A stretch of DNA of 54,122 bases, taken from the IMG/VR virus record IMGVR_UViG_3300025674_000055, positions 1-54,122 of that record; one strand, written 5' to 3'. This DNA comes from a virus (lineage: Duplodnaviria; Caudoviricetes). Positions 9,401-46,994 of the stretch are shown here, one piece after another. Within the stretch, counting starts at the first letter, position 1. Each line of letters opens with the position of its first letter. The notes under the pieces were generated by a model. It did not search any database. It was not told the DNA's origin and saw only the letters and a list, made by a program, of their open reading frames with translations. Both the position numbers and the translations under genes were made by a program.

Positions 9401-10091
9401 GCGTGGTCTTGAGTATCGTGATGTACGGGAAGACCCAACACTTGATGGATGGACTACCTTCTTCAATGAACTTGAAAGACCTACAGCACAACGTGGAATT
9501 AGTCTTACTGCAGAAGAAGAAGCAGCACTTCCACTGAGAGAGTATGTATTCTCTGAAAGTAGAAGACGTGTGAACCAACCAGCACGAGTTCTTCTTGGTC
9601 TTAGCCAAAGTTCTGCTACTTCAGAATATGGGGAATACTTCCTTAACAAAGGGTTTAACGAGTACGATCTTAGCAGCACATCTGAAGTGCCCACTGTAGT
9701 GCGATGGGAGAATCAACAGATTAGAAAAGTGCTGCCTATCATCGCTGAAGCAGCACAACGTAGAGAAGAAAAACTGCGCCTTGATTACGCAAACATGTCT
9801 GACACATACAAAAATAGTTTTACTGAATCTCAGCATGTAAACAATAATGTAATCCCACTCATCAACGGATTGGTACGTGACCTTCGTTCTAACCTACGTG
9901 AAATGAATGTTGGCGCAGAAAACCCATATACAAATGCTGTTGTACAGTACCGCAGAATACCTCCCGATATTAGAAAGTTGGCTACTAATTACTTTGTTGA
10001 GCGATATGATAGAGAGCCAGACGTAACAAGTACGGAAGACTTGCAACGTCTGATAGGTCTTGGCGATGCGCTACGAAAAGTATATCAATAA
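6483..10091 (+). CDS. Large internal virion / DNA-ejection protein
   Basis: 1202 aa, last gene of late arm as in other podoviruses; N-terminal DIL(S/G)AFG repeats. Confidence 0.75.
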   Translation: MADEREKPDILSAFGVTNNNVPTTEDEDTPPAQPGNKSGADILGAFGVDSTKVPATPSPTLPSNEVRGNAGGADILSAFGATSTQQDQVEPLEVEETISEADVTEPGLTQGVDVAMLPPRIDDDLEATAEVEPTPQRRVTVDSEQEFYERIDMLEYEYGDGFYEIPEDWGLDARIGAQFGVDLRKALTNEVQRAESESGVQNLEYAGLLEEQGVDTTVQVPIRDPEEIQRRLEEQADTVQALLDDPNASRSAITQELLDRGMSLKEIITSVTLLEIAPVSGTILGVQDIPIMYEEARQQYDEGDISGAATTLGFIGLETLASIAGTAAGVKAIADVTRSSRATRTLRNAYRNNVAIAEAATSDVAREAAERAAQVAADNQGVAEELIRAFEARTGKTISTTTDDGRLVIDPDLARQAGQETMLDVAGTDLAAGADELLQPILRPEKFDAVVAIASDYKQRYPEAFNNNRTIIDSLFDLTVNKELIGGQELIDDLNKYGLSFEDYILTVVGSGSEAGKILNKLSQIRRARPSGVAEEEAAKATLEAQNTLRRTFMRLENIRRGGLVSQLATAARNLTSASIRVPMEALANAADTAIYRATNEGTVAGVMEMFSKQNWKDSFAQFRLIYSRPDVARAYTDFLLQRPELAKQYDRMFNNINEIQKLTGRGSGTVSDKFLSTMEDAVDFLNIPNRWQEHLIRRGVFFSELQRLTRNEYGIDLIDELQAGKLQDLLNDSSLVKPPSRRSFLALVDDAVTKSLDVTYAKQPDIPMFRSWSQFIVRNGLTTVVPFPRFMFNSMELMGQYAAGASIPLTRKVASLVMPSHRGPLTAKDRQRITRNLLGLTAIAAAYQYRISEDAPADYKQMNTSEGVVMDTSPQFPMRQYLYIAEAARRYRDGTLDNWFNAREFAETFTGSNLRAGVSNAILEELAAIADGTDLTKEESFGRRTGALFGQYLSTWLVPFAQLIEAQRATGERGLEYRDVREDPTLDGWTTFFNELERPTAQRGISLTAEEEAALPLREYVFSESRRRVNQPARVLLGLSQSSATSEYGEYFLNKGFNEYDLSSTSEVPTVVRWENQQIRKVLPIIAEAAQRREEKLRLDYANMSDTYKNSFTESQHVNNNVIPLINGLVRDLRSNLREMNVGAENPYTNAVVQYRRIPPDIRKLATNYFVERYDREPDVTSTEDLQRLIGLGDALRKVYQ

Positions 10092-12197: not shown

Positions 12198-12274
12198 TGG
12201 CCTTCCCTGAGAGATTCGAACTCCCGACCTAGTGATTAGAAGTCACTTGCTCTATCCAGCTGAGCTAAGGGAAG
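12198..12274 (-). tRNA. tRNA-Arg(TCT)
   Basis: CTTCCCT/AGGGAAG acceptor, TAGCTCAGCTGGATAGAGC D-arm, CT-TCT-AA loop, GTTCGAATC T-arm, CCA end. Confidence 0.95.
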
Positions 12275-31148: not shown

Positions 31149-31736
31149 TCAGGCAGCTTTGCTGACAGCCTTAGCATTGTCAGCATATTCTGCAAGAATA
31201 TCATCGATGACATCCAGCACATTGATGCCACTTGCTTCGCAAACAGCCTTGAGTTGCTTGACGATATCACCTTTGGTGATGACAGGCTTGGCAGCTTCCT
31301 TAGCTTCGCTATTAGGTCCAACATTGGACTTAGCTTCACCTTTGGTGGAAGCAGCTTCAGCCTTCCCAGTGCCTTCGGCACTTTTACGCATTGCTGCTTG
31401 AAGAGCAGTCAGAGAGGTGAAACCTTTCTTGCTTTCAGCAAGGAATTGGCGGCACTCCTTTTCGTTTTCAACGAACCACAGAGCCTCAGAACGGCGACGT
31501 TTATCCACTATGTGGATTCCACAATCCTTCAGCCTTTGGCTGGAAATACGCTCACCACCCTCAGCCTTCAACTGCTGAAGCAGTTTGCCCAACCGAGTGT
31601 CAAAGCCATCGGCTTTGGTGAAGGCATTGAAACGACGAACATCAGCTTTGCTGATCTGTTTCCATTCTGCTGCCAGAATGAAGCCTTCAGCTTCAAGAGT
31701 GTTGATTTCCGGCTTGTTGATGGTCGAAGTGGTCAT
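31149..31736 (-). CDS. First early gene, hypothetical protein
   Basis: 195 aa, host-like codon use, purine-rich RBS. Confidence 0.8.
   Translation of the reverse strand: MTTSTINKPEINTLEAEGFILAAEWKQISKADVRRFNAFTKADGFDTRLGKLLQQLKAEGGERISSQRLKDCGIHIVDKRRRSEALWFVENEKECRQFLAESKKGFTSLTALQAAMRKSAEGTGKAEAASTKGEAKSNVGPNSEAKEAAKPVITKGDIVKQLKAVCEASGINVLDVIDDILAEYADNAKAVSKAA
31312..31333. repeat. Early-region palindrome, copy 5
   Basis: TTAG-GTCCAACATTGGAC-TTAG. Confidence 0.95.
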
Positions 31737-32039
31737 GGCTTTCTCTTTCTCTATCTGTTGTTACATATAAGAGATATTTTTATCTCTCACAAAAAGTGAG
31801 ATAAAAATAGCTCTATGTAACTTAAACAGATAGAGAGTTAGGGTGGATCGGTCAAGGGGGTCAATCAAATTTGTTTTACAAATTACCTGCAACGTGATCC
31901 TCCGCACGGGTCGTTTCGCATGTGACTGCAAAAAATATATTTCATATATATTTTTGAAGTTCGTGCGTGAAACTCGTGAGACAGCTTGGCTAAGACGACA
32001 GGATGAGTGTGGCATTATTACAACAGTATAACTGTTGGC

Positions 32040-32057
32040 AGGTCCAACGTTGGACTA
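32040..32057. repeat. Early-region palindrome, copy 6 (intergenic)
   Basis: AG-GTCCAACGTTGGAC-TA. Confidence 0.9.
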
Positions 32058-32631
32058 GTCAGTGACCAAAGCCTTCGGCTTAACATGTGATGTGATGTGA
32101 TGACATGTGACCATCGAAGATGGGAGGGTGGTAGTTTATGCATCGACATCGCAACAGTGACCCACCTCACCCCATTGGGGGTGGTGACACAGAAAATACC
32201 ACGGCAACTGATTCTATATCAGTTGTTCACCTTGGCTAAGTCACTGAATCTGTTACAGCTTTGCTGTAGTTGGTGGAAGTGAGGCATTGGTTTTGTTTCA
32301 CCACAGGTCATGACATTGCATTATGCAGGCAATTGTGCAGTGAACAGGGGGTGGGCAGGGGCCAGTGCCGGGTGTGGCGTAGTTGTATATGGCTCTCTAC
32401 ACAGATCAGGAAAAATGTACTGTTAACCACATTACATATATAGTGGTTTACACACAGGCTGGGTTGCTAAATGTGATCACAAATATGGGTGTGTTTGGGT
32501 GCATCTGCGGATATGGTCACTTAAGTGTACACTACTTGTGATCACAAAAGTATGGCAGGTGATGTGCCTGCACAAGTAGCTGTACTGTGGCAACAGTGTC
32601 ACACTAAATTTGTTTCTCACGAAGATATTGC

Positions 32632-32662
32632 TTGACATGGGGTATGAATATGTGTAAAACTA
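32632..32662 (+). promoter_or_regulatory. Sigma70-type promoter
   Basis: TTGACA-N17-TAAAACTA. Confidence 0.65.
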
Positions 32663-32668
32663 TATATA

Positions 32669-32813
32669 ACACTTAAACTAAGATTACACTTAAAGTGCTT
32701 ACATGTACAGTGTACACTTAGATGTTTCTATATACTAACTTAGATATACACTTATCTGTATATAATACTTAGAATGAATAAACACTTAGGTAACACGTAC
32801 AGTGTTACACTTA
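32669..32813 (+). repeat. Array of ACACTTA heptamers
   Basis: Exact copies at 32669, 32686, 32714, 32748, 32782, 32807, plus AACTTAG/TACTTAG variants. Confidence 0.85.
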
Positions 32814-32848
32814 AGTGTACTATCCCTGAAAGGAAGAATACGTATATG

Positions 32849-32882
32849 CCTCGCAGTTTACTGCGGGGAGCTTTGTATTTTT
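32849..32882 (+). terminator. Terminator-like hairpin
   Basis: CCTCGCAG-TTTA-CTGCGGGG followed by AGCTTTGTATTTTT. Confidence 0.55.
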
Positions 32883-32886
32883 ATAG

Positions 32887-33108
32887 TTGACTTCTATGAA
32901 AAAATCAGTAAAACTATATACAGACAATGTTCTTGAAGAATTTTACAAGCATCTAATGGATGGTAATCTTGAGGACTTACATATTCCGCACAGTGATGTA
33001 TTCTACGTGAGAGAAGCAGTAAGTGCGCACTATGGCCGTATCTTTACGTTAGAAGAAGTTGAACGTGCCATGAGACTAGAAGGATGGACAGATGGACATG
33101 AAGAATGA
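32887..33108 (+). CDS. Hypothetical protein (start uncertain)
   Basis: First late-arm ORF; LHIPHSDVFYVR motif. Confidence 0.7.
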   Translation: MTSMKKSVKLYTDNVLEEFYKHLMDGNLEDLHIPHSDVFYVREAVSAHYGRIFTLEEVERAMRLEGWTDGHEE

Positions 33109-33502
33109 CAAGAAGGGTTTGATGGCATCCTTTGTGGTGGGCATGGATATTGCTCCTGACATTGTAGATGCTAAGACCAATGCAAAGAATGCTGAGATGG
33201 TTGTACGTGAGTGGAACCTTGGCCCTGAGACTCCCTCTGAAGTACCCGGTGAGAATGCTGAGTACTGGCGTGATATGGCAGACAGATGGCAGATTGAAGA
33301 GGCAGAGGCACGTAGACGTATGTGTGCTAACTGTGAATACTTCTGCAATACTCCCGGCATGATGATGGCTATGGAAGATATTCCCTTCAACGAAATGGAT
33401 GAAGGTGCAGGTGGCAGAGGTTACTGCAAGAAGTTCTCCTTCATTTGTCATAACCTTCGTACATGTCAGGCATGGGACAAAGGTGACGACTACTATGGCT
33501 AA
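33092..33502 (+). CDS. Cys-rich protein with HiPIP-like spacing
   Basis: CANCEYF...GYC......C....TCQAW. Confidence 0.65.
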   Translation: MDMKNDKKGLMASFVVGMDIAPDIVDAKTNAKNAEMVVREWNLGPETPSEVPGENAEYWRDMADRWQIEEAEARRRMCANCEYFCNTPGMMMAMEDIPFNEMDEGAGGRGYCKKFSFICHNLRTCQAWDKGDDYYG

Positions 33503-33776
33503 AGATCCTAGACTGGAACGTGCAGGTGTCACTGGCTATAACAAGCCTAAGCGTACACCTAATCATCCTACGAAGTCTCATGTGGTTGTAGCCAAAGAAG
33601 GTGATACGATTAAGACCATTCGTTTTGGTCAGCAAGGTGTGACTGGTGCAGGTAAGAATCCACAGTCAGCTAAGGACAAAGCCCGTAAGCGTAGCTACTA
33701 TGCACGGCATAATGCACAAGACCCTAATCCTAGCAAACTATCTGCTCGGTATTGGAGTCACAAGGTCAAATGGTGA
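33495..33776 (+). CDS. Conserved basic phage protein
   Basis: IRFGQQG..ARKRSYYARH..SARYWS..VKW; AAGG RBS. Confidence 0.8.
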   Translation: MAKDPRLERAGVTGYNKPKRTPNHPTKSHVVVAKEGDTIKTIRFGQQGVTGAGKNPQSAKDKARKRSYYARHNAQDPNPSKLSARYWSHKVKW

Positions 33777-33786
33777 GGATACTATA

Positions 33787-34338
33787 ATGGCAGGAATTGG
33801 TAGACTAGCTAGGGGTATTGCAGGCGGAAGCTCACGTACTCCCCGTAGAACACGTCCCGGTAGTGGTGAAAGTGGTAACAGAGGTGATACACCAGAGTTT
33901 GCTGAGCGTGATAGACGTGCCGCTGCAGAGCGTAGTAGAACACGTGCTAACCAAGAGCAGGCTAGAGCGACTGAAAAGCGTGGTGCTATCTCTAATGTTC
34001 CAGTTTCTGCAACATCAGTTAGACGTGCAACGACTATTCAAGAAGTTAATATGCGTAGACGGCAAGTAGAAGACATGCCCGATGGTCGTGGTAAGTCTAT
34101 GCTTCTTGATCTTCTTGATCAAAGAGAGAGACAAATTCGTGCTATGGACACGGCAGATGCTGATCGTGCTTCTCGTCGTAGTGCACAAGCTAACCGTGAT
34201 CGCACAGTCAATACTAAAGAGAACGTGACTCTTCCTTCCATGCCTTTTGCTAAAGGTGGCATGGCTAAGAAGTACAACAAAGGTGGGTACGCTAACTGTG
34301 GTGCCTCTATGAAGCCTGACGGTAAAAGAAGGAAGTAA
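33787..34338 (+). CDS. Arg-rich hypothetical protein with C-terminal KGG motifs
   Basis: GAGG RBS before MAGIG. Confidence 0.75.
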   Translation: MAGIGRLARGIAGGSSRTPRRTRPGSGESGNRGDTPEFAERDRRAAAERSRTRANQEQARATEKRGAISNVPVSATSVRRATTIQEVNMRRRQVEDMPDGRGKSMLLDLLDQRERQIRAMDTADADRASRRSAQANRDRTVNTKENVTLPSMPFAKGGMAKKYNKGGYANCGASMKPDGKRRK

Positions 34339-40097: not shown

Positions 40098-40524
40098 GAA
40101 AACAGGAACATGGAAGCTTCCTCAACCCACCGACATTAAAGAGGATAATGAATGGGTTCCTATTCCTCGTATATCTAGGACAGTACCATTTGGTTACTCA
40201 GTTGATCCAGATGATGAGTATGTGCTGCTACCAATTCAAAGTGAATTAGATCTGCTTGAGAAGGCTAAAGAGTATCTTAAGCAATATTCATATAGAGAAG
40301 TGGCACATTGGCTTACTAGAAATACAGGGCGATATATTTCGCATGTAGGTTTAAAGAAGCGATTGGATAATGAGCGAAGAAGAAAAAACAAAGCTGGAAG
40401 CCTTCGCAGATGGGCAAACTATGCGGAAAAGGCAATCGCCAAGGCGCATGAAATTGAACAGAAGAGACTCGACGCAAAAGCCCAGCAACTCAGTTCCAGC
40501 GAAACCGAAAGCAGAGCCAGCTAA
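40087..40524 (+). CDS. Hypothetical HTH-containing protein
   Basis: PFGY...SYREVA.WL...GR.ISH.GL. Confidence 0.7.
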   Translation: MMTKKTGTWKLPQPTDIKEDNEWVPIPRISRTVPFGYSVDPDDEYVLLPIQSELDLLEKAKEYLKQYSYREVAHWLTRNTGRYISHVGLKKRLDNERRRKNKAGSLRRWANYAEKAIAKAHEIEQKRLDAKAQQLSSSETESRAS

Positions 40525-41962
40525 AATTGTTGAATCAACTCCAGATGAATTGGCGGTTGAAGAAGCACACAACGTAATCTTTAAGCCTAACCCCGGTCCT
40601 CAGACTGAGTTCTTGGCTGCAAGTGAAAGAGAAGTGTTATATGGCGGAAGTGCTGGTGGCGGTAAGTCTTATGCTATGTTGGCTGACCCTCTTCGTTACA
40701 TGGGGCACCCAGCGTTTAGCGGCCTACTCCTACGTCACACGACAGAAGAATTAAGGGAACTTATCTTCAAGTCGCAAGAGATGTATCCCAAAATCTGGCC
40801 CGGTATTAAGTGGTCAGAAAGAAAAATGCAGTGGACTGCGCCATCTGGTGCAAGGTTGTGGATGTCCTACCTTGACAGGGATGAGGATGTCTTGCGTTAT
40901 CAGGGTCTGGCATTTAGCTGGATAGGCTTTGACGAATTAACTCAATGGGCCACACCATATGCATGGAATTACATGCGGTCTCGTCTACGGTCCACTGCAC
41001 CTGATCTTCCTATCTTTATGAGGGCTACGACTAACCCCGGAGGTAGAGGGCATCACTGGGTTAAAAAAATGTTTATTGATCCTGCGCCTGCAGGTAGTAC
41101 ATTTGATGCTACGGATATTGAAACTGGTGAAGTTCTTAAGTACCCTATAGGTCATAGTAAAGCAGGTAAGTCTCTTTTTAAACGTAGGTTTATTCCTGCT
41201 AGACTTTCTGACAACCCATACCTTGCTGCTCAGGGTGACTATGAAGCAATGCTTCTGTCTCTTCCTGAACAACAAAGACGCCAGCTTCTTGAAGGTGATT
41301 GGGATATTAAAGAAGGTGCAGCGTTTACTGAGTTTGACAGAACTATACATGTAATAGAACCATTCAAGATTCCGTCCAACTGGGTTAAGTTTAGAGCAGC
41401 AGACTATGGTTACGGTTCTCATAGTGGAGTACTTTGGTTTGCTGTATCCCCAAGTGAACAATTGATTGTTTACAGAGAATTGTATGTTAGTAGAGTCCTT
41501 GCTACCGATCTTGCAGATAGGGTATTGCAGCTTGAGGCAGAAGACGGTAATATTAAGTATGGAGTTCTAGACAGTTCTTTGTGGCACAAACGAGGCGATA
41601 CAGGACCGAGTCTAGCAGAACAAATGATTAGTCGTGGCTGCAGATGGAGACCTTCTGACAGATCAAAAGGTTCTCGTGTTGCTGGTAAAAATGAAATACA
41701 TCGTAGGCTGCAGGTAGATGAGTTTACAGAAGAGCCACGTCTAGTGTTCTTCAATAACTGCGTAAACATAATTGCACAGCTTCCAGCTTTGCCGATTGAC
41801 AAAAAGAATCTAGAGGATATTGATACTTCATCAGAAGACCATTTGTATGACGCTCTTAGATATGGCATAATGTCTAGACCAAGGTTTAGTATTTTTGACT
41901 ACGACTCAAGAGGAACTCCGTCAAATGGTATGCGAATGGCAGATCCAGTATTCGGCTATTAA
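40370..41962 (+). CDS. terL: Terminase large subunit (start uncertain)
   Basis: YGGSAGGGKS, FDELT, TTNPGG, ADYG, DHLYDALRY. Confidence 0.95.
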   Translation: MSEEEKTKLEAFADGQTMRKRQSPRRMKLNRRDSTQKPSNSVPAKPKAEPAKIVESTPDELAVEEAHNVIFKPNPGPQTEFLAASEREVLYGGSAGGGKSYAMLADPLRYMGHPAFSGLLLRHTTEELRELIFKSQEMYPKIWPGIKWSERKMQWTAPSGARLWMSYLDRDEDVLRYQGLAFSWIGFDELTQWATPYAWNYMRSRLRSTAPDLPIFMRATTNPGGRGHHWVKKMFIDPAPAGSTFDATDIETGEVLKYPIGHSKAGKSLFKRRFIPARLSDNPYLAAQGDYEAMLLSLPEQQRRQLLEGDWDIKEGAAFTEFDRTIHVIEPFKIPSNWVKFRAADYGYGSHSGVLWFAVSPSEQLIVYRELYVSRVLATDLADRVLQLEAEDGNIKYGVLDSSLWHKRGDTGPSLAEQMISRGCRWRPSDRSKGSRVAGKNEIHRRLQVDEFTEEPRLVFFNNCVNIIAQLPALPIDKKNLEDIDTSSEDHLYDALRYGIMSRPRFSIFDYDSRGTPSNGMRMADPVFGY

Positions 41963-46963: not shown

Positions 46964-46994
46964 TTGACAATACAGTTTACTCACTGTATAACTA
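46964..46994 (+). promoter_or_regulatory. Sigma70-type promoter of the capsid operon
   Basis: TTGACA-N17-TATAACTA. Confidence 0.8.

Follow-up and report, generated by a model that had tools for sequence, protein, structure and literature searches.

Positions 32,632 to 32,882 of the viral record IMGVR_UViG_3300025674_000055, whose full 54,122 nucleotides we refer to as the window, hold a sigma-70-type promoter-like element (P1), an array of short ACACTTA repeats and a GC-rich hairpin, with a second promoter-like element (P2) close behind. Comparative sequence analysis indicates that this unit is a conserved control leader that opens the operon of structural genes in an abundant type of marine phage, with twin host-type promoters enclosing an array of small dyad-symmetric sites specific to the phage lineage. 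We tentatively read these dyads as an operator array for a phage DNA-binding regulator. An earlier note on this DNA had described P1, six exact ACACTTA copies, ACTTAG variants, the hairpin and the second promoter-like element, each of which direct reading of the sequence bears out, and had proposed conservation among relatives as a test of the unit. That conservation is real, with both promoter-like elements among the most conserved sequences of the region.

The window is an HMO-2011-type marine podophage genome, circularly permuted and whole, since both of its ends fall within one tail-fibre-like gene. Among its kin are the Roseobacter phages CRP-1 and CRP-345 and Puniceispirillum phage HMO-2011, the sole blastn matches of positions 31700-33100, with CRP-1 and CRP-345 showing 71-73% identity over about half of the query. 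Annotation with PHROGs places an integrase, primase, DnaB-like helicase, DNA polymerase A, ribonucleotide reductase, PhoH and MazG on a minus-strand arm (10134-31736), and virion proteins, an endolysin, the large terminase (TerL), the portal, the major head protein and tail proteins on a plus-strand arm that begins at 32896, crosses the window ends and stops at 10091. The integrase of this phage type is a tyrosine integrase, and the same annotation yielded no phage RNA polymerase in the genome. The repeat unit sits in the 1.16-kb gap between the diverging arms (31737-32895), immediately 5' of a gene for a 70-amino-acid (aa) protein (32896-33108), which is followed in the rightward operon by several small genes and then the virion genes.

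For comparison we drew on IMG/VR, where the 70-aa protein has 469 relatives; the 80 best of these were retained for analysis of the locus. The gene start was located in 76 sequences, comprising the window, three GenBank phages and 72 loci; 8 further loci, missed by the gene-start pattern, were left out. Measured from the P1 -35 hexamer to the ATG, leaders span 183-264 nucleotides (nt); 56 are distinct, and a non-redundant set built at an 8-mer Jaccard index of at most 0.5 comprises 27 representatives. A scan of metagenome-assembled genomes matched three contigs (L091-L093).

Twin promoter-like elements at the two ends of the leader

The -10 region of P1 (Table 1) reads TGTG-TAAAAC(T) at 32651-61, and its start site is estimated from sequence at about 32666-32668. 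The exact form TTGACA-N15-19-TAAAAC occurs in the window at P1 alone, against 0.04 occurrences expected. Among the relatives, a search for TTGAC(A/G)-N16-18-TA(A/T)AA(C/T) up to 400 nt upstream of the gene start recovered P1 in 69 of the 76 sequences; the seven that lack it have just 13-173 nt of upstream DNA, so that the element is present wherever enough sequence is available (69/69).

The second promoter-like element reported in the earlier note is present downstream of the hairpin, with the amendment that it extends across the start codon (32896) of a genuine gene that is conserved. Its -35 hexamer lies directly 5' of the ATG, where 54 of the 56 distinct leaders read TTGACAATG (TTGACA) and the other two, from the window's lineage, read TTGACTTCTATG. 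Its -10 hexamer falls inside codons 6-8 of the gene (GTA AAA CTA). Codons 4, 6, 7 and 8 (AAA, GTA, AAA and CTA) are without synonymous change in all 27 representatives, and the remaining invariant residues of the same gene use two to five codons each (five for L29, three for A42). Furthermore, the string GTAAAACTA in P2 is identical to one in the -10 region of P1, and its 16-nt spacing to TTGAC(A/T) is kept. Together, these patterns of conservation indicate that P2 is a genuine nucleotide-level element. A further copy of GTAAAACTA at 9815 on the minus strand was taken as chance, being within a plus-strand open reading frame.

Both elements show the layout of a sigma-70 promoter, with a TTGACA-like -35 hexamer and a -10 hexamer 16-18 bp away, and both are conserved beyond the neighbouring sequence among relatives: mean column identity across the alignment of the 27 leaders is 47%, and P1 and P2 form its invariant islands. 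A stricter promoter rule built on TATAAT did not list either one, their -10 hexamer being TAAAAC, which we take to agree with the alphaproteobacterial consensus. Contig depth in four metagenomes spikes at both promoters, meaning that co-occurring lineages share these sequences. In the more distantly related phage CRP-9, the equivalent of P2 (TTGACT-N16-TACAAC) lies entirely upstream of the ATG that matches by homology, as an ordinary promoter would. A transcript from P2 would begin near 32921, past the start codon, given a -10 hexamer at 32909-32914, and the first gene would therefore be translatable only from P1 transcripts. A search of RNA sequencing runs for positions 31700-33700 listed no match.

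A dyad array that follows phage lineage

Between the two promoters, ACACTTA occurs on the plus strand at 32669, 32686, 32714, 32748, 32782 and 32807. The start-to-start distances are accordingly 17, 28, 34, 34 and 25 nt, where the earlier note had given a range of 12-28 nt. Genome-wide the heptamer is of ordinary frequency (14 copies on both strands, against 11.1 +/- 3.5 in shuffled sequences), and six of its nine plus-strand copies fall inside 145 nt. A first-order Markov model of the 171-nt segment that contains them (71% A+T) predicts 0.18 copies; six were not attained in any of 20,000 simulations, and a count of six for any 7-mer at all came up in 4 of 5,000. The clustering of ACACTTA is not due to chance. 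CACTTA is the commonest 6-mer in the 27 leaders, seen 65 times against 1.3 expected and present in every one of them. The six exact heptamers of the window represent a lineage-specific maximum, shared with one relative only (L051), other lineages having one to four. A 33-nt repeat (D1) recurs at 73% identity with a spacing of 96.

ACACTTA corresponds to the left arm and spacer of a 12-13-bp dyad of the form ACAC-N4-5-GTGT, exemplified by ACAC-TTAAA-GTG(A/T), ACA(C/T)-GTACA-(A/G)TGT and ACAC-TTAA-GTGT. At homologous columns of the 27-leader alignment, TTAA(A)- and GTACA-type spacers substitute for each other. Dyads of the general form nCAY-N4-5-RTGn occur 103 times in 4,808 nt of leader (21.4/kb) compared with 128 times in 66,475 nt of downstream coding DNA (1.9/kb). 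They are arranged in two clusters whose sites abut, with a spacing of 13-15 bp in most lineages: relative to the P1 start, dyads begin at +16, +31 and +44 and then at +92, +105 and +118 in CRP-1, and at +19, +34 and +47 and then at +126 and +140 in the window. The first dyad stands at a nearly constant distance from P1, starting at +15 to +19 in 21 of the 27 representatives, at +11 in one, at +21 in two and at +33 in three, in which last group the true first site is degenerate and was missed by the pattern. Several dyads of about 12-17 bp that lie side by side at a promoter are the arrangement expected of an operator array. GTACA-type sites are separated by 92 nt in the window, by 75-79 nt in most lineages and by 61-63 nt in three; helical phasing between the two dyad clusters was considered and rejected on these spacings.

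The stretch 32517-32818 is the sole dyad cluster of the 54-kb window (6 sites per 200 nt, where the genome averages 1.3 per kb), and it extends to dyads 5' of P1. There, palindromes TGTGATCACAAA at 32472-32485 and 32533-32546 bracket an extra CACTTAAGTG dyad, and likewise in several relatives. Inspection of the array by eye, against consensus sequences, gave no convincing match to CtrA (TTAA-N7-TTAA), DnaA-box or IHF sites. The earlier note had seen no open reading frame led by a ribosome-binding site inside the unit; two short reading frames of 38 aa (32774-32890) and 44 aa (32802-32936) are present, and the varying length of the region among relatives argues against a coding role for the array.

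Table 1. Positions of the leader elements, flanking genes and other landmarks in the window.
Feature	Position	Strand	Description
P1, sigma-70-type promoter-like element	32632-32661	+	TTGACA 32632-32637, 17-nt spacer, TAAAAC(T) 32655-32661
Additional ACACTTA	32669-32675	+	about +2 to +8; window's lineage only, other lineages carry TATATAACTAAACTAAGA there
Promoter-proximal cluster	32686-32725	+	three abutting dyads: ACACTTAAAGTGC 32686-98, ACATGTACAGTGT 32701-13, ACACTTAGATGT 32714-25
GTACAGTGT repeats	32705-32713 and 32797-32805	+	read directly
A+T-rich middle	32726-32792	+	lineage-specific additions: ACACTTATCTGT 32748-59, ACACTTA 32782-88, ACTTAG variants 32739 and 32768
Distal cluster	32793-32818	+	ACACGTACAGTGT 32793-805; palindrome ACACTTAAGTGT 32807-18, within GTACACTTAAGTGTAC; position homologous in 27-leader alignment
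GC hairpin	32849-32868	+	CCTCGCAG-TTTA-CTGCGGGG, 8 bp, then AGCTTTGTATTTTTAT; interrupted T-rich tail to 32884
P2, second promoter copy	32887-32915	+	TTGACT-N16-TAAAAC(T); overlaps start codon of first gene
First rightward gene	32896-33108	+	70-aa acidic orphan, isoelectric point (pI) 5.1
Dyads 5' of P1	32517-32541	+	TCACTTAAGTGT and ACACTACTTGTGA; TGTGATCACA palindromes on both sides
First leftward gene	31149-31736	-	195 aa; weak candidate for the dyad-binding protein
Large terminase (TerL) gene	40370-41962		about 7.5 kb from the array
tRNA-Arg (TCT)	12198-12274	-	the genome's only tRNA (ARAGORN and Rfam on the whole window)

The 70-aa protein has more distant relatives, at 48-53% identity, in CRP-2, CRP-9, CRP-13, CRP-207, CRP-603 and one freshwater contig. 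CRP-2 and CRP-603 retain P1-like and P2-like elements and have neither CACTTA nor a comparable array. Their leader (L085 1040-1203, L088 1030-1193) carries a 9-bp long-range inverted repeat, ACGTGCTGC...GCAGCACGT, around the C/T-rich CTCCTCTCCTCCCTCTCT; it looks like a different solution, possibly one at the RNA level. In CRP-9, ATACTT occurs six times on one strand and is absent from the opposite one, and three TACT-N3-AGTA dyads show the same build with A+T arms; the freshwater relative has four TAATAC copies on the same strand. HMO-2011, whose host belongs to SAR116, has the CACTTAAGTG motif in common with the window. As judged from these genomes, the repeat motif tracks phage lineage and not host, and whatever reads it would accordingly be specified by the phage.

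Operator, RNA and origin readings of the array

The arrangement of P1 at the start of the leader, P2 at its end and two dyad clusters in between suggests a mode of action. A dimeric, phage-encoded regulator would occupy neighbouring sites between about +16 and +58 of P1, and a second group 60-90 bp beyond these, and would block or modulate transcription from P1 and thereby time the P1-dependent first gene and the virion genes. In the window's lineage, the 8-bp GC hairpin with its T-rich tail may in addition stop part of the P1 transcripts, which would yield a leader RNA of about 200 nt as a by-product. 

The lambda OR/OL operators (CI, Cro), the Cox boxes of phage P2 and the Apl sites of phage 186 resemble the present array in that adjacent short dyad or oriented sites lie at a promoter in a divergent gap of an integrase-bearing phage. 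They differ in that most sites described here lie downstream of the start, spread across about 130 bp, rather than covering the -35 and -10 hexamers; the arm controlled here carries virion genes, no CI-, Cro- or Cox-like protein was recognised, and the adjacent small first gene encodes an acidic protein. The OB operators of KorB (plasmid RK2), which can act at a distance from the promoter, are 13-bp palindromes comparable to the 12-13-bp dyads of the leader, whereas OB sites are spread plasmid-wide and the dyads form one cluster, with no ParA- or IncC-like partner here.

The first leftward gene across the gap encodes a 195-aa protein that is a weak candidate for the dyad binder, a lead rather than an identification. 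It has a basic conserved core (IDRRRRSEALWFVEN) and a mean column identity of 49%. Its structural model (mean pLDDT 75.8) comprises a helical domain at about 13-124, a disordered linker at 124-149 and a C-terminal helical hairpin, an organisation that recalls the DNA-binding domain, linker and helical dimerisation hairpin of KorB. The top structural match in VIA-align is the KorB DNA-binding domain (1r71_A; Z 5.2, root-mean-square deviation 3.3 A over 87 residues), the sole chain with Z of at least 5 among 48,161; there is no sequence similarity between the two, and Foldseek returned no match for the protein. Homologues occur in 55 loci, in CRP-1 and CRP-345 and, distantly, in HMO-2011 (hhalign 93.6%, E 2e-7); none was detected in the first two genes of CRP-2 or in gp02 of CRP-9.

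Several observations weigh against the operator reading. The KorB match is weak, and VIA-align warns that Z below 8 may reflect merely a common helical arrangement. The phyletic pattern of the candidate is built on few, non-independent cases, and CRP-9 has dyads with no detected homologue. The rule of thumb that a neighbouring gene encodes the binder of a site is of no help, because the 70-aa protein on the other side is acidic. A fixed DNA loop between the clusters is unlikely, since their spacing (92, about 77 and about 62 nt) breaks helical phase. CACTTA/TAAGTG is rare 5' of P1 (6 copies in 5,154 nt, with 5 of 26 representatives having one within 200 nt), and the motif is one-sided, with CACTTA found 65 times on the plus and 23 times on the minus strand and CGTACA 25 times and never, respectively. 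This strand bias, together with the restriction to the transcribed stretch, would equally suit a role at the RNA level. Finally, the occurrence of one array per genome beside A+T-rich DNA and promoters also resembles a replication origin.

In the RNA-level alternative, the A/U-rich P1 leader would either end at the hairpin (about 200 nt) or read on, and its repeated ACACUUA motifs would bind a host or phage RNA-binding protein, whether to sponge up that protein as a decoy or to bring about attenuation or antitermination in the leader. We consider this improbable, although the strand counts given above and the confinement of the motifs downstream of P1 speak for it. The hairpin is also the best terminator-like site in two scans, including a 15-kb scan of the window: it combines a stem in which six of eight pairs are G-C and a 4-nt loop with a T-run that has five T in the eight bases beginning two bases past the stem, the features of an intrinsic terminator, with the T-run interrupted. 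This hairpin is poorly conserved, a strong stem being confined, among the 27 representatives, to the window (8 bp) and L017/L029 (6 bp). In the rest, the position is taken by a GC stem of 3-5 bp, by another hairpin that the last dyad forms, or by no hairpin, and the T-rich tract begins several bases beyond the stem. A small hairpin followed by TTTGTA does recur at the same place in many lineages. The T-rich tail could equally be A+T-rich upstream DNA of P2, and a terminator would be pointless for the downstream genes given P2 behind it.

The leader RNA of the window folds at -59.7 kcal/mol (z -4.6, none of 200 shuffles as good), a low energy that is attributable to the DNA palindromes. The 27 leaders have no shared RNA structure according to RNAalifold (-1.27 kcal/mol, 5 pairs, none covarying), and no hairpin is maintained at GTACA-type sites, because the inner (fourth) pair is C/A in 5 of 17 first-cluster sites counted on the alignment. 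The A+T-armed dyads of CRP-9 we judged too weak to stand as RNA hairpins. Nothing in 31600-33000 came near an Rfam gathering score, the best local match reaching 16.9 bits against a gathering score of 128. The case for a discrete RNA gene of about 210 nt, which the earlier note had put forward, is consequently weak: its hairpin is strong in two lineages only, the leaders share no structure, the repeats are arms of DNA dyads and no Rfam family fits.

Lambda offers a parallel for an RNA-level reading in its late leader (PR'-6S RNA-tR', with Q antitermination), where a strong, constitutive-looking promoter likewise precedes a roughly 200-nt leader with a terminator-like hairpin ahead of the late genes; in the phages compared here, by contrast, hairpin strength is not conserved, a second promoter follows and the annotation has no recognised Q-like gene. 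CsrB/RsmZ-type sponges, to which the earlier note had likened the unit, similarly repeat a short motif many times in about 200 nt downstream of a promoter. They carry GGA in loops, whereas the motif here is ACACTTA, a DNA dyad arm with neither GGA nor another known sponge signature, no conserved or consensus structure and no Rfam family, so the likeness is unsupported. A decoy RNA, in which an unstructured, A/U-rich P1 leader of about 150-210 nt with five to seven same-strand ACACUUA motifs would titrate a host or phage RNA-binding protein, we regard as quite improbable. Were it true, this would be a phage-encoded sponge RNA, transcribed from the strongest early promoter in one of the most abundant types of phage in the ocean, with its motif retuned in each phage lineage, to ATACUU in CRP-9 and to UAAUAC in the freshwater relative.

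A replication origin, which the earlier note had also suggested in a transcription-primed form, is a live rival to the operator array, if an unlikely one. The dyads would then be iterons for a phage initiator, the A+T-rich middle an unwinding element, and transcription from P1 and P2 the activating or priming event. Repeated sites next to A+T-rich DNA, present once per genome, are characteristic of iterons, and the same features fit an operator array. The repeats are moreover oriented, the 71% A+T segment lies between two promoter copies, and the gap in which the arms diverge contains the cumulative GC-skew minimum at about 31-32 kb. The skew minimum cannot place an origin, because the coding strand switches at exactly the same point. 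The phage has a primase, a DnaB-like helicase and a DNA polymerase A of its own, and a motif specific to the phage lineage would suit an initiator-iteron pair, whereas the annotation contains no known initiator family. The lambda origin with PR and the primary origin of T7 (promoters 1.1A and 1.1B) resemble the leader in having repeated sites, themselves internally dyad-symmetric, together with an A+T-rich stretch that tandem promoters read into or through; here, the promoters are host-type, the position of the array is tied to P1 and the annotation lacks a candidate initiator. The fixed distance of the first dyad to P1 fits promoter control better, and CRP-2 and CRP-603 keep P1 and P2 without a comparable array.

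Other conserved blocks of the gap would serve as an origin equally well, such as 32356-32463 with its TTAACCACA inverted repeat, a sequence that resembles a DnaA box. This block, the most widely shared of the gap, contains a G-rich run followed by CAGATCAGGAAAAATG and the inverted repeat AACCAC-N12-GTGGTT, and shows a rise in contig depth of up to about 7-fold in the metagenomes. It is a candidate origin or regulator site.

Contig ends bear on a third alternative, in which the array would be recognised by the small terminase as a pac- or cos-like packaging site or would act as a ParB-like centromere. Ends fall up to 1.2 kb upstream of the first gene in 26 of 80 loci and within 1.2 kb downstream in 2 of 80, and the genome has one array. 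These ends are scattered over 3-1,193 nt upstream and not piled up, and near-full-length contigs break elsewhere. In four metagenomes, depth islands at which contigs break occur at 31924-31977, 32356-32463, 32626-32679 (P1) and 32896-32949 (P2), where other lineages join and then diverge; among the variants listed for these metagenomes, none lies between 32575 and 32930. Breaks in the gap can be explained by strain diversity, that is, by short ultra-conserved islands between highly diverged stretches, which accounts for the upstream excess. We therefore rejected contig ends as genome termini, given their scatter and their explanation by assemblies branching where conserved islands occur. The window and the public records are permuted or begin by convention at gp01, and the large terminase gene lies about 7.5 kb from the array; a comparison of TerL with PDB sequences, made for the packaging type, gave no match. 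For segregation, the KorB/ParB-type structural match of the first leftward protein counts in favour, if weakly; the PHROG annotation contains no ParA-like partner, and phages of this kind carry an integrase (PHROG annotation; PMC6918029). The terminase recognition array of the earlier note finds no support in these data, and we consider a packaging or segregation site very improbable.

Least credible of all is a reading of the array as attP arm-type sites for integrase and excisionase. Such sites are short oriented repeats in A+T-rich DNA. A tyrosine integrase is indeed reported for this phage type, with CRP-3 integrating at a tRNA-Met gene (PMC6918029). ARAGORN and Rfam detected no tRNA-like core in or near the array, although short fragments would escape both. 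The integrase gene lies 7.5 kb away, and integration at this position would sever the operon from P1.

Flanking genes and other elements of the gap

The 70-aa product of the first rightward gene is far more conserved than its surroundings, at 77-90% identity and a mean column identity of 86% over 25 sequences. It contains 8 K+R and 15 D+E residues. No sequence match was found in Pfam, PHROGs or PDB. Its AlphaFold model (pLDDT 67) has three helices, for which Foldseek found nothing at E of 0.001 or below and the ESM Atlas nothing above 0.75. A ribbon-helix-helix N-terminus, suggested by eye, was dropped as unsupported in an acidic protein. It is possible that the protein acts in immediate-early host takeover. 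Further into the rightward arm, two very basic reading frames at 33399-33776 (pI 10.8) and 33646-34338 (pI 11.4) overlap by about 130 nt in different frames, and one of the two starts is probably miscalled. A promoter-like TTGACA-N17-TATAAC also occurs at 46964-46992, in the gap 5' of the major head gene (47220).

At the other end of the gap, a near-perfect hairpin of about 90 nt (31746-31838) lies immediately 5' of the first leftward start codon and is kept with differing sequences in relatives, where compensatory change is visible by eye. The earlier note had linked the ACTTAG variants of the array to this palindrome; it carries ACTTAA instead, and its relatives are generally without the motif. 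The proposed link between the two fails. Its weak microRNA-like Rfam matches are explained by its being a long hairpin. The apex, TCAC-AAAAA-GTGA, is a dyad of the same type in the window, and similar apices are seen by eye in relatives; speculatively, such an apex would suit autoregulation of the first leftward gene.

A further conserved block, 31894-31982, reads ATCCTCTGC...GTTTC...ACTGCA-hairpin-GAAGTTCGTGCG-AAACTCGTG. Across 24 distinct relatives its central hairpin varies in sequence and length yet stays paired. There are 6 covarying pairs in the plus-strand reading and 14 pairs, including extra G-U pairs, in the minus-strand reading, so the block may lie in the leftward 5' leader. It has no Rfam match.

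Hosts of HMO-2011-type phages include SAR116, Roseobacter and SAR11 bacteria. The phages themselves have been described as dominant, widely distributed marine viruses (PMC9038755), and transcriptomes are available for other pelagiphages (PMC12753301). The main texts of PMC6918029 and PMC9038755 do not contain the word "promoter"; "intergenic" is absent from that of PMC9038755 and is used in that of PMC6918029 for the host rRNA spacer alone. Since neither main text applies these terms to phage genomes, how such phages, lacking their own RNA polymerase, schedule gene expression appears to be undescribed in these two accounts, and no description of the present leader was seen there. The leader described here offers two near-identical host-type promoters, one of them inside the first codons of an ultra-conserved orphan gene, around a lineage-specific dyad array. 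As such, this map indicates where in these genomes a lysis-lysogeny switch or an origin should be sought.

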